64,000 nt of DNA from Vicinamibacterales bacterium (lineage in GTDB: Bacteria; Acidobacteriota; Vicinamibacteria; Vicinamibacterales; UBA2999): NCBI GenBank assembly GCA_036407095.1, contig DASWZV010000065.1, positions 27,262 to 91,261 on the forward strand, in the 5' to 3' direction. Positions within the stretch are counted from its first letter, which is position 1. Each line of letters opens with the position of its first letter. This document shows, piece by piece, positions 8 through 14,371 of this stretch. The notes under the pieces were generated by a model. The model made no database searches. It was not told the origin of the DNA and saw only the letters and a list, made by a program, of their open reading frames with translations. The position numbers and the translations under genes were made by a program.

Positions 8-3000
8 ATGCACCGCTCTGCACTGCGAAATGCCATCAAGTTCATTCGCGCGTGGCACACGTGCTCGGGTGACGACAAAGAGGGCCTTGACGTTCTCGGG
101 CCGACATTCTCCGGCTCGACGCTCTCGATGGCTCTCACGCTGGGCGATCCAGATGACCGGTTCGCAGGGGCTTTCAAAAGGACCCGTGTCATCACCGGCT
201 CTGCCAGCGCGGACGACAACCTCGAAACCTTTCAGAGGTTTGCTCCCAGCGCCGAGTTCCACGCGACGGTTCAACCCACGTTGAAAACCTTGCCGGTCAT
301 GGCCGCGTTTCTCGAGGGGATGAACTCGTCGTGGCGCTGCGGGACGCATGTCGCCATTCTGAGGGAGAGCAACACCGCGTACGGGCAAGCCGCGGACAGG
401 CAAGCCCTGAAGAAGAGCAAAGGTTTGTCCCCCGTGCAAGGTTCGACGCGCAGACCAGACGATTGCAAACCCCTCGCAGAGGCGGAGGTCTTCGCTTTTC
501 CGCTGCATGTGTCGCAGCTCCGAAGCGACAGTCCCGAGACGACGAGAGACACTGTCACTGTGCTGCCCTCGCCCGCCATTCCCCTCAACATGCGCGAGAC
601 GACGCCGCCTGCCGATCAGATCCCGGCTCTTCGACCGCAGCTCACCTCCCCGGTCGTCAATGCCACGGTTGACACCATTCTCGACACGATCCGGCACGAA
701 CGGCTGACGGCGGTCGGGATTCAAGCGACGGACGACCGGGACGTGTTGTTTCTGGCGCGCGAAGTCAAACGCGCGGTGCCCGACGTGCAACTGTTCCTGA
801 TTGGCGCGCACGCGTTGTATCTCCACCAGGACTACATCCCGTATCTTCGAGGCACGCTGGTCGCCTCGACTTACCCCCTGTCGCTGACGGCGCAGAGCAG
901 GGCCACCAGCGATCCGCACACGCGCGAGCCGTTCCAGAGCTGGGCCGCGGAGGGGCTTTTCAACGCGACTCTGCTTCTGATGGACTCGAAGTCCGCGCTG
1001 CGGGACTACTGCGATCCGAGCACGGTAGGGGACCAGCAAGATCGTCATCTTGAATCAATCACTCAGTGCGTGCCGCGCGTGTCGGTCAGCGTGATCGGCG
1101 AGGACGGCTTCTGGCCGTTGCCTGGAGATCACGCCCAGGGCACCGACAACGCCGGGTATGTTCAACCAGCGGGCACGCCGGAGGACTTCAGCCCGATCCC
1201 TTTGCCGCCGCTTCCCACGCAGGCCCGAATCGTCTTCACCGTGGTCGGCCTCTTTGTGTTGGCGCAGGTACTGATGCTCCTCTTCATGCGCCACCGCCTG
1301 CGGAAGGGTGAGAGACCGGGCACATTTCTGAAGTGGCCGGTCCTTCGAGTGCTTGCGCCGCCGATGACGCACAAGACCGCCGCGCGTCTACACCGCATCA
1401 GTCTGGTGATTTGCTTCGCCGTGTTGGCTGCGATCTCTGCGTGGGTCACCGTCGTCCTGACTCCCTTCCTGTTGTCGAGTCCGTCCGGTGTACTCGTCGG
1501 TGTCACGCTGGTGACGATCGGTGTCATGCTTCCAGCCCTTTTGCCCAGGACATCCAGAGAGGCACAGCATGTGTACTGGGGTCCGGAGGCGGCACGAAGG
1601 AGAACGAGATGGTTGCTGTCGCCAGTGATCGCGCTGCTGGCGCTCGGCCTGTGTGCCTTTATCGTCTACCTCGTCGGGCTCGTGTCGGGCGACACCCCTG
1701 CAGATGTCCAGCTGACACTGGCGCGTCTGGTTGGAGGGGGCATCATCTCGCCTGCAACCGCCACGCTGTGTCTGTTTGCCGCGCTTTACGCGGGCATCTT
1801 CGGCGGGATGCGGCGGCTATCCCTGGTCGGATGGGGATACGCCCAACTCGAAAAGAAATCGCGGGCGTTCGACTTGCTGAACAGACCACCGACCTGGTCG
1901 CCAAATGATCGGCGTCCGCAGGCGTGCGCGCGCTTGAGCGATGTGCTGGACATGCCAGCGCAGAATCTCCCTGTGTCATATACCGCCGGAATCCTGCTGG
2001 TCCTGGTGGTCGCTGTTCTCAGCATTGGGGGGATCTCTACCATCGAAGGAAAGGCATTTACGTGGTTCTTCGGCGCGACCTCCGCCACCGTGCTCATGCT
2101 GGGGCTCCTGAACCTCGCCCAAGGCCTCACGATCTGGAACACCGCACGTGCCCATCTGAAATGGCTTGCGCAATCGCCGATTGAAGGATCGTTCACGGCG
2201 ATCGCCAACCTGGTGCCGTGGAACCTGTCGCTGACACCACCACGGTTGATGGAGCTCCTGCCCGTCGCGCGCAGGGCGGACCAGATTGCGTTGGAGTTTC
2301 GCGTGCTCAGAGATCGCACCGAGGTCAGCGGGTGCGGACGGTCCCGCATCGATGACGAACCGCGCGGGGAACCTCTCGATCAGGACGACAGAGTCGAGAC
2401 GAAGCTCACCATCCGGAAGAGGGACTTCGGTGGGATCGGGAGGAACGTCGCAGTCGCGTCTCATGTCTCCAGCCTCGAACAGGAGATCGTGGAGCAGCAG
2501 CACGCGCCGTTCACGCAGAGCTCGAGCTGGATGCGCCTGTGGGAGGTCTCTGATGCCATCGTCCTGTTGTTGCAAAGGACGGCCTGGTGCCGGTTGGTTC
2601 CCAATCGCCAGAGCGCTCCTCCGAGCGGAATCCCGGTTGCGACGACCGTCGGCGGCCCGACAGATGTTGGTCAGGCGGATATCGCTATATCGCAGCGAAT
2701 GAGAATGGCAGCCGCACTGGAACTGGACTCGGACTCCATCCGTCACCGAAACATGGCGCACGAGCACGCTGGGCTGTTGCGTCGCTGCGAAGAACTCATC
2801 GCCCTTCAGTTCGGGTTCGTTCTCCGGGACATCGTGGCCCGCACGATCGCCGCGCTCTTCACCGCGATGCTCTGCCTCATGTTTCTGACAGCGGCGCACC
2901 TGCTGTACTCGTTCAACGGCCGCTCGGCGATGCTGACCGTCGACCTCCTTGCGGTCGCTGGTGCGTCGTTGGCGTCGATCTGGATCCTGGTCGGGATGGA

Positions 3001-3190
3001 ACGCGAGACCGTTCTGAGCCGTCTCCGCAACACCACGCCGGGACAACTGGACATCAACTGGGCTTTCGTACAGCGTGTGGCGGTGTACGGCGTGTTGCCA
3101 CTGCTCGTCGTGATCGCGTCGGTGTTCCCTGAGATCGGCAACTCGATCTTCGGCTGGCTCGAACCGTTGCGGAAGCTCTCGAGCGTCTGA
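8..3190 (+). CDS. Large polytopic membrane protein. It has an N-terminal soluble (periplasmic-binding-protein-like) region followed by many TM helices. Family not recognised. The 5' end may lie outside the window.
   Basis: 1060-aa ORF that is open to the window edge, with no in-frame stop before position 8. Long hydrophobic segments include IVFTVVGLFVLAQVLMLLF, ISLVICFAVLAAISAWVTVVL and GILLVLVVAVLSIGG. Confidence 0.6.
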   Translation: MHRSALRNAIKFIRAWHTCSGDDKEGLDVLGPTFSGSTLSMALTLGDPDDRFAGAFKRTRVITGSASADDNLETFQRFAPSAEFHATVQPTLKTLPVMAAFLEGMNSSWRCGTHVAILRESNTAYGQAADRQALKKSKGLSPVQGSTRRPDDCKPLAEAEVFAFPLHVSQLRSDSPETTRDTVTVLPSPAIPLNMRETTPPADQIPALRPQLTSPVVNATVDTILDTIRHERLTAVGIQATDDRDVLFLAREVKRAVPDVQLFLIGAHALYLHQDYIPYLRGTLVASTYPLSLTAQSRATSDPHTREPFQSWAAEGLFNATLLLMDSKSALRDYCDPSTVGDQQDRHLESITQCVPRVSVSVIGEDGFWPLPGDHAQGTDNAGYVQPAGTPEDFSPIPLPPLPTQARIVFTVVGLFVLAQVLMLLFMRHRLRKGERPGTFLKWPVLRVLAPPMTHKTAARLHRISLVICFAVLAAISAWVTVVLTPFLLSSPSGVLVGVTLVTIGVMLPALLPRTSREAQHVYWGPEAARRRTRWLLSPVIALLALGLCAFIVYLVGLVSGDTPADVQLTLARLVGGGIISPATATLCLFAALYAGIFGGMRRLSLVGWGYAQLEKKSRAFDLLNRPPTWSPNDRRPQACARLSDVLDMPAQNLPVSYTAGILLVLVVAVLSIGGISTIEGKAFTWFFGATSATVLMLGLLNLAQGLTIWNTARAHLKWLAQSPIEGSFTAIANLVPWNLSLTPPRLMELLPVARRADQIALEFRVLRDRTEVSGCGRSRIDDEPRGEPLDQDDRVETKLTIRKRDFGGIGRNVAVASHVSSLEQEIVEQQHAPFTQSSSWMRLWEVSDAIVLLLQRTAWCRLVPNRQSAPPSGIPVATTVGGPTDVGQADIAISQRMRMAAALELDSDSIRHRNMAHEHAGLLRRCEELIALQFGFVLRDIVARTIAALFTAMLCLMFLTAAHLLYSFNGRSAMLTVDLLAVAGASLASIWILVGMERETVLSRLRNTTPGQLDINWAFVQRVAVYGVLPLLVVIASVFPEIGNSIFGWLEPLRKLSSV

Positions 3191-3298: not shown

Positions 3299-3865
3299 TT
3301 GTGGCACAACCGGCCGCCCGGCAGCTTGACGATCGTGACACCACCACAGAATTTCGACGCAAGGGCTATCACTGAGCCGCACGAGCGGCTCCTTACGTAC
3401 TACTTCATCGTTGCGCTGCTTTCCCTCGTGGCGTTTCCGGTCACGATGACCGTGTTGTATATCAAGTACCGCACCATGCGGTTCCGCTTTGACGATGAGG
3501 GCGTGTGGAAGCGGCAGGGCCTGCTGTGGCGCAGTGAAGTGAACGTCACGTATCGACGCATTCAGGACATTCACTTGACCAACGGCATCGTTCAACGGTG
3601 GCTGGGTTTGGCGACGGTGAGCATCCAAACCGCGGCGGGTTCGTCAACGGCGGAAGTGACCATCGAGGGGGTGCTCGAGGCGGAAGCCTTGCGCGACTAC
3701 CTGTACACGAAGATGCGAGGCGTGCGCGAAGGTACGTCTGTTGTGGCTCACGCGACCGACAGTGGATCGCACGCTGGCGCGACTGATGACGAAGCGCTTG
3801 CGCTGCTCGCGGACATCCGCGACTCGCTTCGCCGTCTCGAGACCCGTTTGAGCGGTCGGCCGTGA
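3299..3865 (+). CDS. Bacterial PH domain (bPH_2 / YdbS-like) membrane protein
   Basis: Two N-terminal TM helices, then a typical bPH_2 core: RFRFDDEGVWKRQGLLWRSEVNVTYRRIQDIHLTNGIVQRWLGLATVSIQTAAG. The track start is TTG, so the exact start is uncertain. Confidence 0.75.
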   Translation: MWHNRPPGSLTIVTPPQNFDARAITEPHERLLTYYFIVALLSLVAFPVTMTVLYIKYRTMRFRFDDEGVWKRQGLLWRSEVNVTYRRIQDIHLTNGIVQRWLGLATVSIQTAAGSSTAEVTIEGVLEAEALRDYLYTKMRGVREGTSVVAHATDSGSHAGATDDEALALLADIRDSLRRLETRLSGRP

Positions 3866-4626
3866 GCCACACTGTCGACGCCGCGGCCGAATGGATCTAT
3901 CGAGGCATCTGGGCAGGCATCGTCGCACTGTTCAAAGTCCCGCCGGAGCCTCCAACGCTTCCGTCGTCGGGCGAGGCGGTCCGCTCGATCAGGCCATCGG
4001 CCGGTTATCTTCGTTATCTGAAATTCCTTTTCTGGGTGGCATTCCTCCCGGGAGACATTGTCCCGCTCATCCTCTGGATTGCTGTCTTTGTCGCCCTTCC
4101 CATTGTGGGCGTCATTCTGATCGGTCCGCTCGTGATCGTGCTGATCGCACCAGATGTGATCGCGTACGTCGGCCTTCACCTCAAATACGACACCACTTGG
4201 TACGTGCTGACCGATCGGAGCCTTCGCATCAGACGCGGCATCTGGGTGATTCACGAGACGACGATCACGTTCGAGAATGTTCAAAACGTCGAAGTCGCGC
4301 AGGGTCCCGTGCAGCGTTTCTTTGGCATCGCCGACGTGATCGTGCAGACGGCGGGGGGCGCCTCGAGGAGAACGAGCCATGGAGGGGAGAAGACAACTGG
4401 CGCGCACGTGGGCGTCCTGCAGGGCCTGGACAATGCCGCAGAAGTGCGCGACCTGATTATCGACCGCGTCAGGCGAAGTCGAACGACAGGCCTCGGCGAC
4501 GAGCATGCGATGCTGTCGGCTCATGCGAACCACGCGCCTCGGCCGGAGTATTCGACAGCCCACTTGGCCGTGCTGCGTGAGATTCGCGACGCAACGCGCC
4601 GCCTCGCAGAAGCGGCTCCGCTATGA
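3862..4626 (+). CDS. Bacterial PH domain (bPH_2 / YdbT-like) membrane protein
   Basis: GTGA start/stop overlap with the upstream gene at 3862-3865. Motif YVLTDRSLRIRRGIWVIHETTITFENVQNVEVAQGPVQRFFGIADVIVQTAGG. Confidence 0.75.
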   Translation: MSHTVDAAAEWIYRGIWAGIVALFKVPPEPPTLPSSGEAVRSIRPSAGYLRYLKFLFWVAFLPGDIVPLILWIAVFVALPIVGVILIGPLVIVLIAPDVIAYVGLHLKYDTTWYVLTDRSLRIRRGIWVIHETTITFENVQNVEVAQGPVQRFFGIADVIVQTAGGASRRTSHGGEKTTGAHVGVLQGLDNAAEVRDLIIDRVRRSRTTGLGDEHAMLSAHANHAPRPEYSTAHLAVLREIRDATRRLAEAAPL

Positions 4627-5142: not shown

Positions 5143-6414
5143 TTACACCGTCCGTCCGCGCTCGCCTGATGTGACGGGAACCGATCCGGCCGCCACGCTT
5201 TCGGCCTGGCAGTCAGTCGTCGCGGCGCGCGTGTCCGTCCGCCGGAGTTTCCGTCCGGCAATCTTGTTGTGAATGCTTTCGAGTGGGCCTGGTCCAGGGC
5301 GGCCCAGTCTTCGTTCGAGCGCGGAGAGCGGCGACAGTTCCCCGGAAAGGATCTGCAGGGCCCATGCGCTGTCGATTCGAGCCTGTGCCTCTTCGTTCGC
5401 TCCCGCAGCCTCGTCGCTGTCCAATCGCGCGCTCACGACGAACACCTTTCCGCTGAGCTCGCGCAGCTCGAGCACGTGACCCGACCGCTCCAGGTCCTGT
5501 TCCTCGGTGTCGAAGCGATGGACGAAATGGACGTCGTGCGCTGCTCGCGAGCCTTCGTCGCTGGGAGTCGGAGTCTCGGAATGGCCGTTGGCCGATTCGA
5601 GCCGCTCGATCAGCGATTCGACCGCTTTCAGCATCTGCGACCACGTCTCCTGCTGGCCCACTGAGCTGGTCTCTCCCTGAAGACGTGTGTCGAGCTCTTC
5701 CCAGACCTTTGCGAACGCCTCCGTAGCAGACTCCCGTGCAGCGAACATCGCCAGCGGCTTCCGGTGAACTGTCATCTGCTCGACGACGCTCGCGTAGGGG
5801 ATTTGTGCACGCATGAAGATCTGCGGGTTTGCTGCCGACCATTCGGTGGCGTGCCGATGCAGCGTCTTTCGGCGATCGACCATGCTGAAGAACGCCGCGA
5901 CCTTGCACCGTGTCTCTGAACGGTCGGCCCACTGGATCAGATGTGCGAGCGTTCGCAACGAGAGCACGGTGGGGATCGTGGGCACGATGATGGCATCAGC
6001 CGCTGCGAAGATCCCCTCGATCAACAGCGAGAAGCCTGCCGGGCAGTCGAGAAACACCACGTCGAAGTCGCGGCCGAGCGTCTCCAGAAGTGACGTCACC
6101 GAGCGTTCAGGTTTGCCAATCGAATCGAGAAGCCGCTCGAACTTCCGGTAGGCGAAGTCTGCCGGCAGTAAATGCAGGTTGTTGTAATCAGTCTCTCTGA
6201 TGGCCGCGCCGAGCGCATGGCCGTCCTCGAGGCTCTTCTTGCCGAACCCTTCGACATGCGGCTGCACTCGGAACGCAAACGTTGCGGCTCCCTGTGGGTC
6301 GAGATCCCATAACAACGTCCGCGCTCCTGCTGCCGCGGCGAGATACGACAGGTTGACCGCGCCGGTTGTTTTCCCGACCCCGCCTTTCATGTTGTAGATG
6401 GCAACGGTCTTCAT
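5143..6414 (-). CDS. ParA/MinD-family P-loop ATPase with a ~170-aa C-terminal extension
   Basis: Deviant Walker A: MKTVAIYNMKGGVGKTTGAVNLSY. Also DLDPQGAAT and DVVFLDCPAG. The start was moved to the internal ATG at 6414, which forms an ATGA overlap with the stop of the upstream CHAD gene. Confidence 0.85.
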   Translation of the reverse strand: MKTVAIYNMKGGVGKTTGAVNLSYLAAAAGARTLLWDLDPQGAATFAFRVQPHVEGFGKKSLEDGHALGAAIRETDYNNLHLLPADFAYRKFERLLDSIGKPERSVTSLLETLGRDFDVVFLDCPAGFSLLIEGIFAAADAIIVPTIPTVLSLRTLAHLIQWADRSETRCKVAAFFSMVDRRKTLHRHATEWSAANPQIFMRAQIPYASVVEQMTVHRKPLAMFAARESATEAFAKVWEELDTRLQGETSSVGQQETWSQMLKAVESLIERLESANGHSETPTPSDEGSRAAHDVHFVHRFDTEEQDLERSGHVLELRELSGKVFVVSARLDSDEAAGANEEAQARIDSAWALQILSGELSPLSALERRLGRPGPGPLESIHNKIAGRKLRRTDTRAATTDCQAESVAAGSVPVTSGERGRTV

Positions 6415-8003
6415 CGCGCTCGCTCCTCTGACTTCGATCGCCTGAACGCGCGCCGGCACGCCGTCCGTGTCTCAGGGGCCCGAAAGCGTTCGAGTGTCGC
6501 GACGACCTCGTCGCGCAACCGTTCCCGACGCTGGCAGCTCTGCTCGACAAGCCGCCCGAGCGCGAGCAGGGCGCCAGGCGGGCCACCAGCGGCGCCCAGC
6601 TCGAGCCCGCAGTTCAGCAGCCGCTTTTCCTGCACTTCGGCGTCGTTGAAGTCGCCGAGTACTCGCTGCAGCTTCTTCACGGCGCCAACGACGCACCCCA
6701 GATCGGCGGCATCGCAAAACGCTGGCGTGACGTCGATCAGATAGCGCAGCTTCTTCGCATCGATGCGGATTTCGTGGAGTCGCGCTGCCGATGTCTGGCC
6801 GTCGATGATCCTGGCGGTGTCGGCGATTCGTTGGCTCAGTCGCCACGCCCGCCTCGCAACGACATGTGCCAGACGGTCTCCCGCGTTGACCGCTTCGGGT
6901 GTGGTCAACACCGGCCGTTGCAGAAATGCCTTCCAGTCTGAAATGAGACGTCGATACCGCTGGCTGTCCAGCGCTTCGATGAGCCGGTCGTGTTCCTGCT
7001 GCTGGGCCTGAGTGAGGATCTCCCGCAGCACCTGCATGTCGGCAGCGGAAAATTCGGCGCCACGTTCTCTGAGTGCCAGGACGAGTACGTCCAGGTCGCG
7101 AGGCGCACCAGTCAAACGTCCGATCCACGAGAACTCCGTCGAGAAGTGCTCGACCGCCTCTGCTGGGAACACGCGTCGGATCTGACCGAGGAGCGAGCGC
7201 GTTCGCCTCACGGTCACACGAAAATCGTGGAGGAATTCCGTGTCCAGATTGGCGCGGAGGCCAGGTTCGTTGGCTTCGAGAATGCCGACGAGCGCCAGAT
7301 GAATCTGCCGCGCTCCGATGTCTGCGCGGACCGTCGATGCGAGATCCACGCGAGGCGACGATACGTCGCCCCGCATCGGCGCGCCAGCCCCCGACAGCAT
7401 CACGTCAAGCGAACCCTCAGGGCACGGCTGAACGCCGGGACGACTCTCGATCACCGGCACGAGTCGCGAATAGGTGTCCTCGTACCCGCGCAGTGCCGTC
7501 AATGTGACCATCGTCGGCAACGGGCGCCACGCAGCTCGTGGCGACGGCAGCCGGGCCTGGCCAGACGCAATCCGGAGACGTGCCACGGTCTTGCCGCGAT
7601 CGTCGAGCACTTCGAGCAGCGATCCGTACTCCTCGGCGTCGGCCTGTTCGAGAAGCCGCCGCGGACCGATGACCGAGGCCAGCGTTTGCTGCAGTCGCCC
7701 GGTGGGAAAGTCCCACGCAAAATTCGCCGGCTGCTTCAACCGGACCTTCAAGTGGCTTGAAGTCCCGCGCGTCTGCCACGCCACCGTGGAGTCGTCGGCG
7801 CCGCCGCGCGTCAGGCGGGCGCCGGCCCGACGGACGCGCTCGTCGAAGGTGTCGAGGACGGTGAACCGGTGCCGGGCAATCGCATGATGCCGGGTCGGCA
7901 GGAGCGCCTGCAGGCTCCTCGTAATGGCCTCTCCTGAGACTTCTCGTGGAACGACGTAAACCGATTCGGTTGCGGCAGCCACACCGTGCTTCATTTCCGT
8001 CAT
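6411..8003 (-). CDS. CYTH-like N-terminal domain + CHAD domain protein
   Basis: CHAD helices with conserved basic/His motifs: HDFRVTVRRTRSLL, LHEIRIDAKKLRYLIDV and LGDFNDAEVQ. The N-terminal ~200 aa has the CYTH-like pattern FTVLDTFDERVRRAGARLTR...WQTRG...LKVRLKQP. A clean ExExK motif is not visible. Confidence 0.8.
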   Translation of the reverse strand: MTEMKHGVAAATESVYVVPREVSGEAITRSLQALLPTRHHAIARHRFTVLDTFDERVRRAGARLTRGGADDSTVAWQTRGTSSHLKVRLKQPANFAWDFPTGRLQQTLASVIGPRRLLEQADAEEYGSLLEVLDDRGKTVARLRIASGQARLPSPRAAWRPLPTMVTLTALRGYEDTYSRLVPVIESRPGVQPCPEGSLDVMLSGAGAPMRGDVSSPRVDLASTVRADIGARQIHLALVGILEANEPGLRANLDTEFLHDFRVTVRRTRSLLGQIRRVFPAEAVEHFSTEFSWIGRLTGAPRDLDVLVLALRERGAEFSAADMQVLREILTQAQQQEHDRLIEALDSQRYRRLISDWKAFLQRPVLTTPEAVNAGDRLAHVVARRAWRLSQRIADTARIIDGQTSAARLHEIRIDAKKLRYLIDVTPAFCDAADLGCVVGAVKKLQRVLGDFNDAEVQEKRLLNCGLELGAAGGPPGALLALGRLVEQSCQRRERLRDEVVATLERFRAPETRTACRRAFRRSKSEERAR

Positions 8004-8006
8004 CGC

Positions 8007-8411
8007 TCACGAGTTCAGTTGGACGTCGAGGTGATGGATCAGCCGCTGCAGTTCTTCGCGCAGACAGTCCGCTGCGTCGGGAATGCGCATCCAGCGTCGC
8101 CGCCGCACGTCATCCTCGAGCCAACGGTCCGCGACGTTCGTGACGCGCATGGCGAAAACATCAACCCGCCGGCGATCGTTACCCTTGACGTGGTGGTACC
8201 ACCCGAGTGGTTTCCGCCACACCACGCCGCGCAGTCCGGCTTCTTCCTCGGCTTCCCGGATCGCCGCGTCGCGTGGCCGCTCGCCCTCGTACACAGACCC
8301 TTTCGGCACGATCCAGCCCTTCCCTCCGGACGTCGTCACGAGGGCCACCTCGACGCGCTCGTTGCGGATCCGATACGGGATCACGGCAGCCTGCTGAAGT
8401 ACACGCGGCAT
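8007..8411 (-). CDS. Nudix hydrolase
   Basis: Nudix box: GKGWIVPKGSVYEGERPRDAAIREAEEEAGLRG. The start was trimmed to MPRVLQQAAVIPYR at 8411. Only 3 nt separate its stop from the CHAD gene start. Confidence 0.8.
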   Translation of the reverse strand: MPRVLQQAAVIPYRIRNERVEVALVTTSGGKGWIVPKGSVYEGERPRDAAIREAEEEAGLRGVVWRKPLGWYHHVKGNDRRRVDVFAMRVTNVADRWLEDDVRRRRWMRIPDAADCLREELQRLIHHLDVQLNS

Positions 8412-8623
8412 CTGTCCTCCAGTCGCGGTTTCAGAACTGGGTGCTGGGAGCTCGGGTTCTGAGGGTTTGAACAGAAAGTAACAAAGTCGCGTTGGATGAA
8501 CAAGAGGCTTCAATGAATGGTGAGTCGCCAAACGAGATTCGATGCAACTACATGAACGTGAGGGCGACGATGGCACGAGCACGAACGGTATCGGACGGTT
8601 CACCGTCTAAGCCGGCGTCCACC

Positions 8624-11050
8624 ATGACTTCCTTCCTTCACGACCTCCGATATGCGGTCCGTTCGCTGTTCAGCAGTCCCGCTTTCGCGATCGTCGCCGC
8701 GCTGACGCTGGCGCTCGGGGTTGGCGCCAACACGGCGATCTTCAGCGTGCTGCAAGCGGTCGTCCTGCGCGACCTGCCGTACCACGATCCAGGCCGCATT
8801 GCGGTCATGTGGACGTGGAACCGGCAACAGAATCTTTCCGACGGTTCCTCCTACTTGAACTTCCGCGACTGGAAGGCGCAGAGCCGCGAGTTCGAGCAGA
8901 TGGCCGCCTATCTGCGTCCCGAGTTCACCCGCGGGACGTTGACCAGTGACGGCGAACCAGAGCGCGTCAACGTCGGACTGGTCGGGCCGGATTTCTTCGA
9001 GCTGCTGGGCACGGCACCCATCGCTGGCCGCGCGTTCACCGCCGACGACTTCAAGGAACAGTCGACGGCCGTTCTCATCAGCTACGGCCTCTGGCAGCAG
9101 CGCTTCGGCGGCGATCCCAAGACAATCGGCCGGACGATTCAAGTGGACGGGGCCGGTGTGGAACTGATCGGAGTGATGCCCCCCGGCTTCGAGCTGCCGA
9201 CCGCGGGGGTGCAGTTGTGGCGCCCGCTCTTCTTCGGATCGAACTGGCAGCAGCCAAACAGCCGCGGCGCGGACGCGTTGATCGTACTCGGTCGACTCAG
9301 GCCGGGCGCGACGATCACGTCGGCGCGAACCGAGATGGATGCCATTGCCGCGCGTCTGCGAACCGAGTACCCGACCAGCAACGCGAGCTTCGGCGTTACC
9401 ACGGACGCGCTCGTGGACCGCGTGATCGGCCCCACGACGGAGCGGTCGCTCTGGCTCCTCTTTGGCTCCGTCGGATTCGTCCTCCTCATCGCGTGCGCCA
9501 ACGTCGCGAATCTGATGCTCGCGCGGGTCACGGCCCGCAGTCGTGAGTTTTCGCTCCGAACAGCCCTCGGCGCGAGCCGGATGCGGCTCATCAGACAAGC
9601 GCTCGCGGAAAACGTCGTGCTGTCGCTGCTCGCCGGCACCATCGGCGGGCTCTTTGCCTGGCTCGGAATGCTTGCTCTTCGCACGTGGGCAGCCGGCGTG
9701 CTGCCCCGGGCCAACACGATCGTTCTCGATGCGCGCGTGTTGTCATTCGCGTTGATGGCATCGCTCGGCTGCGGACTGATTGCTGGTCTGCTGCCCGCGC
9801 TCCAACTATCGATTGGAAGCACGGCCAACGCGCTTCGCGACGCCGGGCCGCGCCTGCTCGGCGGACGCAGCGGAAGACGACTGCACCAGGGTCTAGTGGT
9901 GACAGAGATCGCGCTCGCGGTCATCCTGCTCTCGGGAGCGGGTTTGCTGATTCGCAGCTTGGTTCGCGTGCAGTCCACGGATCGTGGGTTCGATTCCGCG
10001 AACGTGCTCCTGCTCCAGATCGATCTACCCAGTACCTACAACGACCGTCCGAAGGTCGCGGCCTTCTTCACCGACGCCTTGCAGCGCATCCGCGCGCTGC
10101 CGGGAGTCTTCGCAGCGGGCGCCATCAGCGACTTCTTCATCCATCGGCAACCAGACTACCGGATCGCGCTCGAGGGGCAGCCGCCGCGGCGGCCGTCCGA
10201 TGCGTCGCCGCCGCTCACCGAGGACAATGTGGTCCCCGGTTACTTCGAAGCAATGCGCATCCCGCTGCTGCGCGGTCGTCTGCTCGAGGAGCGCGACCTT
10301 GCGCCTAATGCCCCGCCCGTCGTGGTCATCAACGACGAGATGGCGCGCCGGTTCTGGCCGGGTGACGATCCGGTCGGCAAGCGGTTCAAGTACGGACTCG
10401 ATCCGGCCGCGAATTTCCCGTGGAAGACCGTCGTCGGCGTCGTGGCAAACCAAAGGAGGCAGCGGCTCGACGAGGCCGCGATCCCGTACATGTTCCAACC
10501 GGGAGTAATTCCCCAGATGGACATCGCGGTGCGCACGACCGGCGACCCCGAAGCGCTGCGCGCGGCCATTCGCGATCAGTTGCAGGCGCTCGATCCCGCG
10601 GCGCCGCCTTACGGCATCGTCACCGTCGAACAGCGCATGCAGCAGAGCGTCGCACTGCGCCGTTTCCAGACGCTGATGCTCGCGACGCTGGCGGCCGTGG
10701 CACTGCTGCTGGCCGTGGTTGGCGCGTACGGCATCATTCATCGATCGGTCGCGTCGCGGACGCAGGAGATCGGCATCCGCACCGCACTCGGCGCGAGTGC
10801 CTCGTCGGTGTTGCGGATGGTGCTGGCGAGCGGTCTCTCGCTCGGCTTGATCGGGCTCGCGCTCGGTTTCGTGGGATCGCTGGCCCTCAGCCGCACGGTC
10901 GCGTCGTTTCTCTATCAAACGAGCCCGCTCGATCCGCTCACATACGTGGCCGTGACCGTTGTGTTGTTCGCGGTCACCGCCGCGGCGACGCTGACCCCGG
11001 CGCGTCGAGCCGCCCGCATCGACCCGATGGCGGCGCTGCGCGAACAATAG
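8624..11050 (+). CDS. ADOP-family permease (duplicated MacB_PCD + FtsX). No adjacent ATPase.
   Basis: The N-terminus LRYAVRSLFSSPAFAIVAALTLALGVGANTAIFSV is typical of the family. There are two FtsX-like 3-TM blocks and the C-terminus is PARRAARIDPMAALREQ. The start was trimmed to MTSFLHD. Confidence 0.85.
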   Translation: MTSFLHDLRYAVRSLFSSPAFAIVAALTLALGVGANTAIFSVLQAVVLRDLPYHDPGRIAVMWTWNRQQNLSDGSSYLNFRDWKAQSREFEQMAAYLRPEFTRGTLTSDGEPERVNVGLVGPDFFELLGTAPIAGRAFTADDFKEQSTAVLISYGLWQQRFGGDPKTIGRTIQVDGAGVELIGVMPPGFELPTAGVQLWRPLFFGSNWQQPNSRGADALIVLGRLRPGATITSARTEMDAIAARLRTEYPTSNASFGVTTDALVDRVIGPTTERSLWLLFGSVGFVLLIACANVANLMLARVTARSREFSLRTALGASRMRLIRQALAENVVLSLLAGTIGGLFAWLGMLALRTWAAGVLPRANTIVLDARVLSFALMASLGCGLIAGLLPALQLSIGSTANALRDAGPRLLGGRSGRRLHQGLVVTEIALAVILLSGAGLLIRSLVRVQSTDRGFDSANVLLLQIDLPSTYNDRPKVAAFFTDALQRIRALPGVFAAGAISDFFIHRQPDYRIALEGQPPRRPSDASPPLTEDNVVPGYFEAMRIPLLRGRLLEERDLAPNAPPVVVINDEMARRFWPGDDPVGKRFKYGLDPAANFPWKTVVGVVANQRRQRLDEAAIPYMFQPGVIPQMDIAVRTTGDPEALRAAIRDQLQALDPAAPPYGIVTVEQRMQQSVALRRFQTLMLATLAAVALLLAVVGAYGIIHRSVASRTQEIGIRTALGASASSVLRMVLASGLSLGLIGLALGFVGSLALSRTVASFLYQTSPLDPLTYVAVTVVLFAVTAAATLTPARRAARIDPMAALREQ

Positions 11051-12712: not shown

Positions 12713-12970
12713 GTGTCGCTCCGTCGGACTTGCGCCTCACGCAGGCGCGAAGCCCATGCGTCGCCTCCGACGCGGTGATGAACGTAGAAGAGCCGGGTTG
12801 GATCGTACGTCGCCTTGATGCACCGCAGACGGTCACCTATCCTCGTGCGAAGCGTCTACGATGCGCCCCTTCCACCGCCCACTAGTTCAGCCGTTGAGAT
12901 CTCCTCGGCCACGAATGCAGGCGAGGCACCGATCGGGCCAGCGTTTCCCATCCACGAGTCGAGGTTCGAC

Positions 12971-14371
12971 ATGGAGTTGCTCACACACTATTTTGCTTCT
13001 GACGCCTTCATGCCCCATGGGTATTGCTATCTGTGGAAGCCAGGCATGGTCTGGCTGCACGTCATCTCCGATTCGCTGATTGCCCTCGCGTATCTGTCGA
13101 TTCCGCTCACGCTCGTCTACTTCGTTCGAAAGCGGCATGACCTCCCCTTTCACTGGATGTTTCTGTGCTTCGGCGCCTTCATCGTGTCCTGCGGTGCCAC
13201 CCACGCCATGGAAGTGTGGAATCTGTGGCACGCGGACTACTGGTTTGCAGGGGCGGTGAAGGTTGTGACGGCCCTCGCGTCAGTCGCAACCGCGCTTCTG
13301 CTGATTCCGCTGGTTCCCGTGGCGCTCGCCATTCCAAGTCCGAGCGACCTCCGGCGATCGGAACAGAAGTTTCGCGGGCTTCTCGAGGCGGCCCCTGATG
13401 CGATTGTGATCGTCAACCAGCGAGGCGAAATTGCCCTCGTCAATGCACAGGCCGAACGGCTGTTCGGGTACCGTCGAGAGCAGCTGCTGAATCAGCCTAT
13501 TGAGACTGTCATTCCGCAGCGCTTGCGGAGCAGCCACGTTGCCCGCCGCACCGGTTTCCTCACCGATCCGCGTGTGCGCGCGATGGGCGCGGGCCTGGAG
13601 CTGTTTGGCCTGCGCAAGGACGGGACTGAGTTTCCAGTGGAGATCAGTCTCAGCCCGCTTGAAACGCAGGAAGGAATTCTCGTCTCGAGTGCGATCCGCG
13701 ACATCACGGTGCGCAAGCAGACGGAGGAGGCACTGGCCAGTGTCAACCGCCGGTTGATCGAGGCACAGGAGAAGGAACGTGCCCGCATTGCCAGAGACCT
13801 GCACGATCATACGAACCAGCGTCTCTCGCTCCTGGCCATCGGCTTGGAGGAAGTCAAACGAGAGCTGCCGACGCAGGCCTCGGTCGTGGGCGAACGGCTG
13901 GACGAATTGCGAGCGCAGACTATGGAGGTCTTGAGCGATCTCCAGGCCTTGTCGCACGAGTTGCACACCTCAAAACTGGAGTATGTCGGACTCGTTGCGG
14001 CGGCCCGCGGATTCTGCAGAGAGTTCAGCGAGCAGCGGAAACTGAAGGTCAACTTCGAGAGCCACGATCTTCCACTCATCCTCCCCTCCGACGTCTCGCT
14101 CTGTCTCTTCAGGGTTCTGCAGGAAGCCTTGCACAACGCGGCTCAACACAGTGGAGCCGCCGAGTTCGACGTCGCGTTGTGGGGCACGCCGCAAGAGATT
14201 CATCTCCGGGTTCGCGACGCCGGTGCGGGCTTCGACGTCGACGCCGCGAAAAAGGGTGAAGGGCTCGGCCTCGTCAGCATGCAAGAAAGGATGCAACTGG
14301 TCAAAGGCAGGTTGTCGATTGAGTCCCGCCCGCAACACGGTTCAACGATTCATGCCCGCGTGCCGTGTTGA
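12971..14371 (+). CDS. Sensor histidine kinase: ethylene-binding-domain-like 3-TM N-terminus, PAS, HisKA_3, HATPase_c
   Basis: EBD-like region: [55 protein letters not shown]. The PAS region begins near [19 protein letters not shown]-box: [22 protein letters not shown] boxes: [18 protein letters not shown] and [11 protein letters not shown]. The start was trimmed to MELLTHYF. Confidence 0.85.

Follow-up and report, generated by a model that had tools for sequence, protein, structure and literature searches.

What is the role of a bacterial operon in which a Nudix hydrolase, a CHAD domain protein and a ParA-like ATPase are encoded one after the other? The question is raised by a locus on the minus strand (positions 5143-8411) of a 64,000-nucleotide stretch of contig DASWZV010000065.1 from a soil bacterium of the Vicinamibacterales (Acidobacteriota), hereafter the window, for which a first-pass annotation made from the sequence had proposed a system that positions polyphosphate (polyP) granules. 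We put the chances slightly above even that the operon encodes a two-component positioning module of the ParA/MinD type for polyP granules, together with a polyP-active accessory hydrolase, and we regard the core formed by the CHAD protein and the ATPase as the best current candidate for ATP-driven positioning of these granules. The original proposal thus stands in part: gene adjacency, ATPase clade, CHAD identity and polyP gene context speak for it, while the catalytic role that it gave to a CYTH domain does not hold.

The adjacency of the CHAD and ParA-like genes, on which that proposal leaned, is conserved in relatives. A forward scan with the ParA alignment against one genome per species yielded 80 loci, which were annotated with locally built hidden Markov models (HMMs) of the N-terminal domain of the CHAD protein (N-domain), of CHAD, of Nudix and of the ParA C-terminal domain. 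The CHAD-linked ATPases all group in a single clade when the ATPase domains are placed in a neighbour-joining tree. A gene encoding the N-domain and CHAD lies directly upstream, on the same strand and often with a 4-nt overlap, in 22 of the 28 ParA loci of this clade, whereas no CHAD gene lies within 6 kb of ParA at any of the other 52 loci. The same pair is present in three out of three further metagenome loci and on replicons of several cultured Paracoccus strains in a plasmid collection. In the reverse search the query was the CHAD protein from L023, a distant locus; it returned 4718 relatives, all of about 505-530 aa, and ParA is encoded directly downstream of the CHAD gene in each of the five contigs that could be evaluated (Desulfosarcina ovata, an 8-Mb genome, two Gemmatimonadota-type genomes and an Anaerolineae metagenome-assembled genome (MAG)); the contig of locus L089 ends at the CHAD gene. 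The CHAD-ParA pair spans at least seven phyla, having been found in Acidobacteriota, Pseudomonadota (alpha and beta), Rhodothermales, Bacteroidota, Desulfobacterota, Spirochaetota, Gemmatimonadota and Chloroflexota, and the pairing is not due to chance.

Two irregularities were observed in the ATPase genes of related loci. In the 8-Mb genome (L085, 7600-9417), the CHAD-linked ParA is cut to 151 aa by an IS3-type insertion sequence (rve transposase and HTH_Tnp_1), from which we conclude that the system is dispensable, at least in that genome. In L011 and L013 the ParA frame is split over two open reading frames (ORFs), which may be a frameshift or a MAG assembly error.

The middle protein of the operon scores as a CHAD protein (Pfam PF05235, E-value 1.1e-47 for aa 241-462, 163 bits against a cutoff of 25.6), as had been stated. 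Its family profile matches CtCHAD, the CHAD domain of Chlorobium tepidum Q8KE09 (6qv7/6qva), with an E-value of 5.6e-45, and the model of its CHAD domain, which has the family's fold of two four-helix bundles, superposes on the CtCHAD-polyP complex 6qva with a template modelling (TM) score of 0.90 in Foldseek. Both domains belong to the long type of CHAD and have a central pore, their polyP contacts are conserved, and the overall sizes of the proteins are similar, since the crystallised domain comprises residues 207-522 of a protein of about 520 aa; in the case of CtCHAD, however, the CHAD domain alone was studied. The CtCHAD residues whose mutation lowers polyP binding (His253, Arg256, Arg260, Arg296 and Arg418/Tyr419; PMC6537752) align to His259, Arg262, Arg266, Arg302, Arg420 and Tyr421, none of which varies in the Acidobacteriota alignment (A2). 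On the distal surface of CtCHAD, Lys441, Lys386 and Lys390 also have basic residues as counterparts, whereas the other two of its five residues, Arg438 and Arg385, do not, so that most of the polyP-contact residues are kept. The CHAD domain is therefore predicted, from its sequence and modelled fold, to bind polyP. CHAD proteins were found at polyP granules in vivo (Tumlirsch and Jendrossek 2017, as reported in PMC9239181 and PMC6537752), and a granule localisation of the protein encoded here would be expected by analogy.

The three genes are tightly packed in the order Nudix, CHAD protein, ParA-like ATPase, the ORF listing and the sequence agreeing with the first-pass annotation on this point, as well as on the 3-nt gap between the first two genes (8004-8006) and on the ATGA stop/start overlap between the last two (Table 1). 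This overlap suggests translational coupling of the CHAD and ParA genes, and a 4-nt overlap is also found in L001-L003 and in many other loci. Homologue alignments favour the ATG at 6414 as the ParA start rather than the upstream GTG at 6459, and the alignment with homologues of 136 aa favours the ATG at 8411 as the start of the Nudix gene. As the next downstream gene is convergent, the operon ends at the ATPase gene.

The ATPase was likewise correctly recognised as a ParA/MinD member with a deviant Walker A motif (NMKGGVGKTT), which is the sole such motif within the 64 kb. Pfam assigns it to AAA_31 (3.9e-30) and CbiA (1.8e-12), both above their cutoffs, and the catalytic motifs are intact: Lys10, Lys15 and Thr16 are invariant in 25 clade members and in 52 other ParAs, as are Asp37/Asp39 and Asp123. 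Its predicted structure (predicted local distance difference test, pLDDT, 74.5) matches best with Soj/ParA, followed by MinD, FlhG and ParF (Foldseek, probability 1.0, 15-27% identity), the nearest solved structures being the Soj/ParA entries 8ray and 2bek. At the sequence level, a ParA is the best match among solved structures (phmmer, 5e-17), with Thermus Soj at 6e-16, and identities are in the range of 23-27%. None of the NCBIfam equivalog cutoffs is reached (ParA_partition, 72 bits against 180; MinD TIGR01968, 46.6 against 212.9; BcsQ, 55 against 158), which places the ATPase within the superfamily but outside the Soj, MinD, BcsQ and plasmid partition families. Together with these values, the separate clade in the neighbour-joining tree and its signature residues, absent from other ParAs (Tyr7, Arg49, Thr75, Asp76, Tyr89, Thr149, Lys183, Glu212, Met214, Arg218 and Trp238), bear out the earlier view that the protein belongs to neither the Soj nor the MinD clade.

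Two forms of the ATPase can be distinguished. The long form carries a conserved C-terminal domain of about 105 aa, with the motifs HRFDTE...LELRE...QILSGxMSPL...LRRIDSR in an alignment of 26 homologues and the invariant residues His299, Phe301, Asp302, Thr303, Glu316, Glu319, Asp348, Ser361-Pro362-Leu363 and Arg392; no relative of this domain was obtained by Pfam, PDB sequence or PADLOC searches. It is confined to Acidobacteriota (L001-L013) and one Burkholderiales MAG (L030), and the short-form ParA found elsewhere has about 250 aa and lacks it. The C-termini of the short-form ATPases do not contain a membrane-targeting helix of the MinD type. An all-against-all comparison of the ORFs downstream of ParA in 14 short-form loci gave no conserved third gene, and since no ORF is shared, a split-off C-terminal domain or a ParB-like partner at this place was dropped.

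Could the ATPase nevertheless be an ordinary ParA that partitions DNA, of a chromosome or a plasmid, with a CHAD gene next to it by chance? This is how the source annotations would have it, as they read "ParA family protein" or "chromosome partitioning protein", and the Paracoccus pair does lie on large extrachromosomal replicons. However, the window contains no ParB box motifs, no parS sites (with up to three mismatches) and no DnaA boxes, in agreement with the absence of parB and origin context first noted; the genes that flank the operon are unrelated, and min genes are absent nearby, here as well as at the reverse-search loci. Centromere-like repeats, repeat arrays and promoter or terminator consensus sequences were searched for near the operon, with nothing above chance, and no ParB gene adjoins the ATPase gene in the related loci examined (the metagenome, reverse-search and P. 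marcusii loci). The loci lie inside multi-megabase chromosomal contigs, no NCBIfam partition cutoff is reached, and the CHAD adjacency is specific to one clade (22/28 against 0/52). The lack of parB, parS and origin signals and this clade-specific adjacency contradict a DNA-partition role, which we take to be extremely improbable. A plasmid-partition reading fares no better, as the best plasmid matches (about 40% identity) are the CHAD-linked Paracoccus copies themselves. A defence function was also considered for the operon and dropped, since the PADLOC search gave no match of note.

The first-pass annotation described the middle protein as "CYTH-like + CHAD". Its long CHAD domain is confirmed, as seen above, and its N-domain is CYTH-like by predicted fold alone. 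In the model of the protein (AF2, pLDDT 84), Foldseek relates the N-domain to thiamine triphosphatase, AtTTM3 and SaTTM with a probability of 1.0 but with E-values of 1e-3 to 2e-2 and TM scores of about 0.5, and aligns E. coli YgiF with the CHAD protein model over its full length (8e-10). By sequence, a CYTH assignment was rejected: Pfam returns no CYTH or other match for the N-terminal 235 aa, even at E<=10, the family profile retrieves CHAD only and no CYTH protein from the PDB, and hhalign is not significant against the CYTH domain of YgiF (E 0.14) and also fails against the stand-alone CYTH gene of D. ovata. Hence, of the domain models at issue, NUDIX, CHAD and CbiA/AAA_31 score and CYTH does not. 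The strand β1 reads ESVYVV in the window, without the catalytic ExExK, a motif that is missing in all lineages examined (14 diverse members), and the N-domain residues invariant across phyla are only DTFD (51-54), Phe95, Arg115, Lys138 and Gly173. Given the missing ExExK strand and the few invariant residues, we read the N-domain as a degenerate, probably non-catalytic module with a triphosphate tunnel metalloenzyme (TTM)-like modelled fold. A search of 1.84 billion cluster representatives showed that 628 clusters at 50% identity carry the N-domain, and in nearly all full-length ones the protein has 505-550 aa with the domain at the N-terminus; in view of this uniform size and position we take the architecture to be fixed and the N-domain to mark the ParA-linked CHAD subfamily.

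These observations also bear on a different proposal, in which the middle protein would act as an enzyme of the CYTH type (class IV adenylate cyclase or tri/polyphosphatase) under regulation by polyP through its CHAD domain, with parA as an unrelated cell-cycle gene. Such a reading was given for Acidithiobacillus, where the authors report conserved CYTH active-site residues (PMC6416229), and it would agree with the TTM/CYTH-like predicted fold and with the structural alignment of the whole protein to YgiF. That E. coli inorganic triphosphatase has the same arrangement of a TTM-like barrel followed by CHAD; nevertheless, it contains a canonical ExExK TTM and a short CHAD, shows no detectable sequence similarity to the N-domain family, and parA is not found beside ygiF, its canonical CYTH-CHAD gene. 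The proposal also leaves the conserved pairing unexplained. Moreover, D. ovata and P. marcusii encode separate CYTH enzymes beside the pair; these keep the canonical EIERKF motif, which underlines that enzyme and fused N-domain are different things. The sequence comparisons and the loss of ExExK speak against catalysis as well, and we hold this proposal to be very unlikely; the remodelling of granules by a CYTH activity of the middle protein that had been suggested at first is unlikely too, as ExExK is absent throughout the family.

The accessory hydrolase of the operon would be the Nudix protein. Its Nudix box is intact (G-x5-E-x7-REAEEEAGL; Pfam NUDIX 1.6e-13), and its closest solved relatives are DIPP1/2/3 (aa 7-118, E-values from 6e-12 up to 3e-11); no further family scores better than 5e-6. 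The clear box noted at the outset is confirmed, and the margin of about six orders of magnitude in E-value supports the DIPP-type assignment made there and membership of the DIPP/Ddp1-like subgroup. The DIPP subgroup of Nudix proteins includes endopolyphosphatase activities (Ddp1 and NUDT3). In the majority of Acidobacteriota loci, as well as in L023 and L085, a gene of the same Nudix family precedes the CHAD gene; in D. ovata and P. marcusii it lies downstream of ParA, and since both of these match the HMM built from Acidobacteriota Nudix proteins, we consider Nudix as a third recurrent component.

Repeated neighbours of the pair are ppk1, ppx, pst/pho, Nudix and canonical CYTH genes (Table 1), and ppk1 or ppx are adjacent in a minority of the clade loci (4/28). 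The extended order CHAD-ParA-CYTH-Nudix is common to one deltaproteobacterium (D. ovata) and one alphaproteobacterium (P. marcusii). In D. ovata a His_Phos_1 (SixA-like) gene adjoins PPK1, and in P. marcusii the cluster is located on a 158-kb replicon, straight after pstCAB-phoU-phoB.

This context may be read in another way, in which the ATPase acts as a nucleotide-dependent switch for polyP metabolism or granule nucleation, perhaps by recruiting PPK1, PPX or Nudix to the surface coated with CHAD or by gating them there. The frequent clustering with ppk1, ppx, Nudix, CYTH and pst/pho genes would suit such a switch, as would the extra conserved C-terminal domain of the Acidobacteriota long form, and several ParA/MinD members are known to be regulators; FleN, BcsQ and MipZ are examples of members that act as regulators or localisers. 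Nevertheless, the constant partner of the ATPase is the CHAD protein and no enzyme, with ppk1 or ppx adjacent at only those four loci, and the ATPase has retained both the signature lysine and the motifs for a sandwich dimer, which are typical of ATPases engaged in patterning. We therefore regard the switch as unlikely, albeit as a possibility to be reckoned with.

Table 1. Features of the Nudix-CHAD-ParA operon in the window and gene orders at related loci (positions refer to the window).
Feature or locus	Positions	Strand	Description
Nudix hydrolase gene	8007-8411	-	134 aa; ATG at 8411; GGAGG at 8420-8416, four bases upstream
CHAD protein gene	6411-8003	-	530 aa; begins 3 nt past the Nudix stop
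N-terminal domain of CHAD protein	7299-8003	-	aa 1-235; β-rich, degenerate CYTH/TTM-like predicted fold, no ExExK
Long-type CHAD domain	6414-7298	-	aa 236-530; predicted polyP binder
ATGA stop/start overlap of CHAD and ParA genes	6411-6414	-	read from the sequence; CHAD stop codon 6411-6413
ParA-like ATPase gene	5143-6414	-	423 aa; GAGGAG at 6428-6423, 8 nt ahead of the ATG
ParA/MinD-type ATPase domain	5665-6414	-	aa 1-250; deviant Walker A, K10/K15/T16, D37/D39, Walker B D123
Helix and variable disordered linker	5533-5664	-	aa 251-294; length and sequence vary in the alignment; pLDDT <50 at aa 278-293
Conserved C-terminal α/β domain of long-form ParA	5215-5532	-	aa 295-400; pLDDT ~87-92
Non-conserved C-terminal tail and stop codon of ParA-like gene	5143-5214	-	
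L023			Nudix-PPK1-CHAD-ParA-PPX
L018			PPX-CHAD-ParA
L015			PPX-like ORF divergent from the CHAD gene; by phmmer only
L021			PPK1 divergent from a clade ParA without CHAD neighbour
Desulfosarcina ovata (L084, AP021879.1)			PPX-CHAD-ParA-CYTH-Nudix; PPK1 2 kb away
Gemmatimonadota			pst genes...CHAD-ParA-PPK1
Caldithrix			PPK1-CHAD
Paracoccus marcusii (L091, NZ_CP065895.1)			pstCAB-phoU-phoB...CHAD-ParA-CYTH-Nudix-CYTH

The positioning module that we favour is derived from comparative genomics, and its dynamic steps are drawn by analogy with ParABS and McdAB. The 530-aa protein would be the cargo adaptor, its long CHAD domain coating the surface of the polyP granule, and the N-domain and/or the moderately conserved C-terminal helix (F-[KR]-x-L-F) would contact the ATPase. 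The latter would dimerise on ATP via its signature lysine, and the ATP-bound dimer would bind a polyanionic matrix, most likely the nucleoid, as ParA and McdA do. The granule-bound adaptor may then stimulate ATP hydrolysis and thereby release the ATPase, so that a depletion gradient would space the granules and pass them to both daughter cells. The DIPP-like Nudix protein would act by trimming or remodelling polyP or polyphosphorylated nucleotides related to it; the clusters of other lineages also encode canonical CYTH, PPX and PPK1 enzymes.

The nature of the matrix is the step at which a further explanation diverges. PolyP, instead of DNA, might be the matrix of the ATPase, or the granule might be a hub that organises the nucleoid or other condensates, and would thus be track or organiser and not cargo. 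The ATPase residue equivalent to the DNA-binding Arg189 of Bacillus subtilis Soj is non-basic and the clade has its own invariant basic residues (Arg182, Lys183, His186 and Arg218), which would be compatible with a matrix other than DNA, and polyP granules were described within the nucleoid and interacting with it (PMC11894788, PMC13556221). However, polyP binding is already supplied by the CHAD domain, and the characterised ParA-type positioning systems all use DNA or membrane as matrix. We judge this explanation to be quite improbable.

Several points weigh against the positioning module itself. The non-basic residue in the place of Soj Arg189 means that nucleoid binding is not assured, and no N-terminal peptide that is evidently basic and disordered, such as ParB and McdB use to stimulate their ATPases, is seen in the adaptor. 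The association of the clade with CHAD genes (22/28 against 0/52) has a Fisher p of 1.4e-14, a figure that is inflated by genome relatedness. Six of the 28 clade members are without an adjacent CHAD gene, and Thiodictyon has a CHAD gene of this family without an adjacent ParA. Ralstonia strains from which CHAD proteins had been deleted were without apparent phenotype (PMC6537752), those proteins not being known as ParA-linked. Finally, the clustering with ppk1 and ppx fits a regulatory role equally.

Some of the loci that depart from the common arrangement deserve a description. In L016, L017, L026, L029 and L031 (Bacteroidota, Rhodothermaceae, Maridesulfovibrio and Sphingopyxis) a clade ParA is present, with no gene for CHAD, PPK1 or PPX at a distance of up to 6 kb; these ATPases may have their partner gene at another place in the genome, or a different cargo. 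In Ca. Thiodictyon syntrophicum pTs417 (L092, 5782-7368) the gene encoding the N-domain and CHAD stands beside pstABS, and a hemolysin-III family gene is found nearby, as in the Paracoccus locus.

Among characterised systems, the one that the CHAD-ParA module resembles most in its organisation, as proposed here, is McdA/McdB: a two-gene module made of a ParA-type ATPase and an adjacent adaptor, with a non-DNA, granule-like cargo on the nucleoid and with neither centromere nor ParB. In contrast to McdA, the CHAD-linked ATPase belongs to a clade of its own in which the signature lysine is kept, the putative adaptor (degenerate TTM-like domain and CHAD) is unrelated to McdB, and the cargo would be a granule of an inorganic polymer. 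With ParABS (Soj/Spo0J) the ATPase shares its fold and catalytic motifs, at the low identity given above; ParB, parS and the Soj arginine are missing and the partner gene, which lies upstream, encodes a predicted polyP-binding protein. The sole described factors for even spacing of polyP granules (AlgP of P. aeruginosa) or polyhydroxybutyrate granules (PhaM, PhaF and PhaH) tether the granules to the nucleoid (PMC9239181, PMC13052382); these are single DNA-binding proteins and no ATPase is involved, whereas the CHAD-ParA module would supply an ATP-driven mechanism.

The closest precedent in the literature is the folD-ppk-parA-(CYTH-CHAD) cluster of Acidithiobacillus, a neighbourhood of ppk1, parA and CYTH-CHAD genes that is conserved within the genus (PMC6416229, PMC10892726). 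It was reported as synteny only: ParA was taken for a protein of plasmid or chromosome partition, the CHAD protein was read as a class IV adenylate cyclase or as a copper-related phosin, and no positioning role was proposed (PMC6416229, PMC10892726). Full-text literature searches gave no described ParA system for polyP granules, so that the statement to this effect in the first-pass annotation is sustained, with the qualification that the Acidithiobacillus neighbourhood had already been noted. No ATP-driven system for these granules is listed in reviews of 2025 and 2026. Neither a review of ParA/MinD ATPases nor a multi-ATPase study from the Vecchiarelli laboratory mentions polyP as cargo; a 2025 review on organelle positioning lists AlgP as the sole polyP factor and marks the ATP dependence of polyP positioning as unknown (PMC13052382); and a 2026 mBio paper describes the mechanism of polyP localisation as undefined in E. 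coli and Caulobacter. Recent reviews agree that polyP positioning proteins beyond Pseudomonas AlgP are unidentified and that the expenditure of ATP is unknown (PMC13052382, PMC13556221). The chances are about even, in our estimation, that the module is the first ATP-driven partition or positioning system for polyP granules, with a distinct ParA/MinD clade and a degenerate-TTM-CHAD adaptor, present in at least seven phyla and often located in ppk1/ppx/pho clusters.

PolyP granules are regularly spaced or found at defined positions in many bacteria, with AlgP of Pseudomonas as the only known factor. The CHAD-ParA pair offers a concrete, testable two-protein candidate in the cultured Paracoccus marcusii and Desulfosarcina ovata, and probably in Acidithiobacillus, and its relevance lies in the fact that a positioning question explicitly left open becomes directly testable in cultured bacteria. 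If the proposal is right, an inorganic polymer condensate would join the list of ParA/MinD cargoes, and the cargo systems of this family would gain a new clade, a new adaptor and a new cargo class. Thousands of annotations as "orphan" ParA-like or "CHAD domain-containing" proteins would acquire a role, and there would be a handle on polyP inheritance in environmentally important phosphate-accumulating bacteria of soils and sediments.

The neighbouring genes of the window present a few features of their own. Two tandem bPH_2 (YdbS/YdbT-like) membrane proteins, with a 4-nt overlap, are encoded on the plus strand (3299-3865 and 3862-4626), convergent with the ParA gene, and are preceded by an ORF of 1060 aa (8-3190, plus strand) with many predicted hydrophobic segments and no Pfam match at 1e-3, which makes it a membrane protein of large size that is still uncharacterised. 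The gene at 8492-11050 (plus strand), which diverges from the Nudix gene, codes for a duplicated MacB_PCD/FtsX permease of the type called "ADOP" in acidobacteria, and a comparable permease and a PadR gene are located close to the homologous operon in L001. Further on, at 12815-14371 (plus strand), a sensor histidine kinase is encoded in which PAS, HisKA_3 and HATPase_c come after an ETR1_N domain at the N-terminus (8.6e-41); since ETR1_N is a membrane domain of the plant ethylene-receptor type, this protein would be an ethylene-receptor-like sensor in an acidobacterium.

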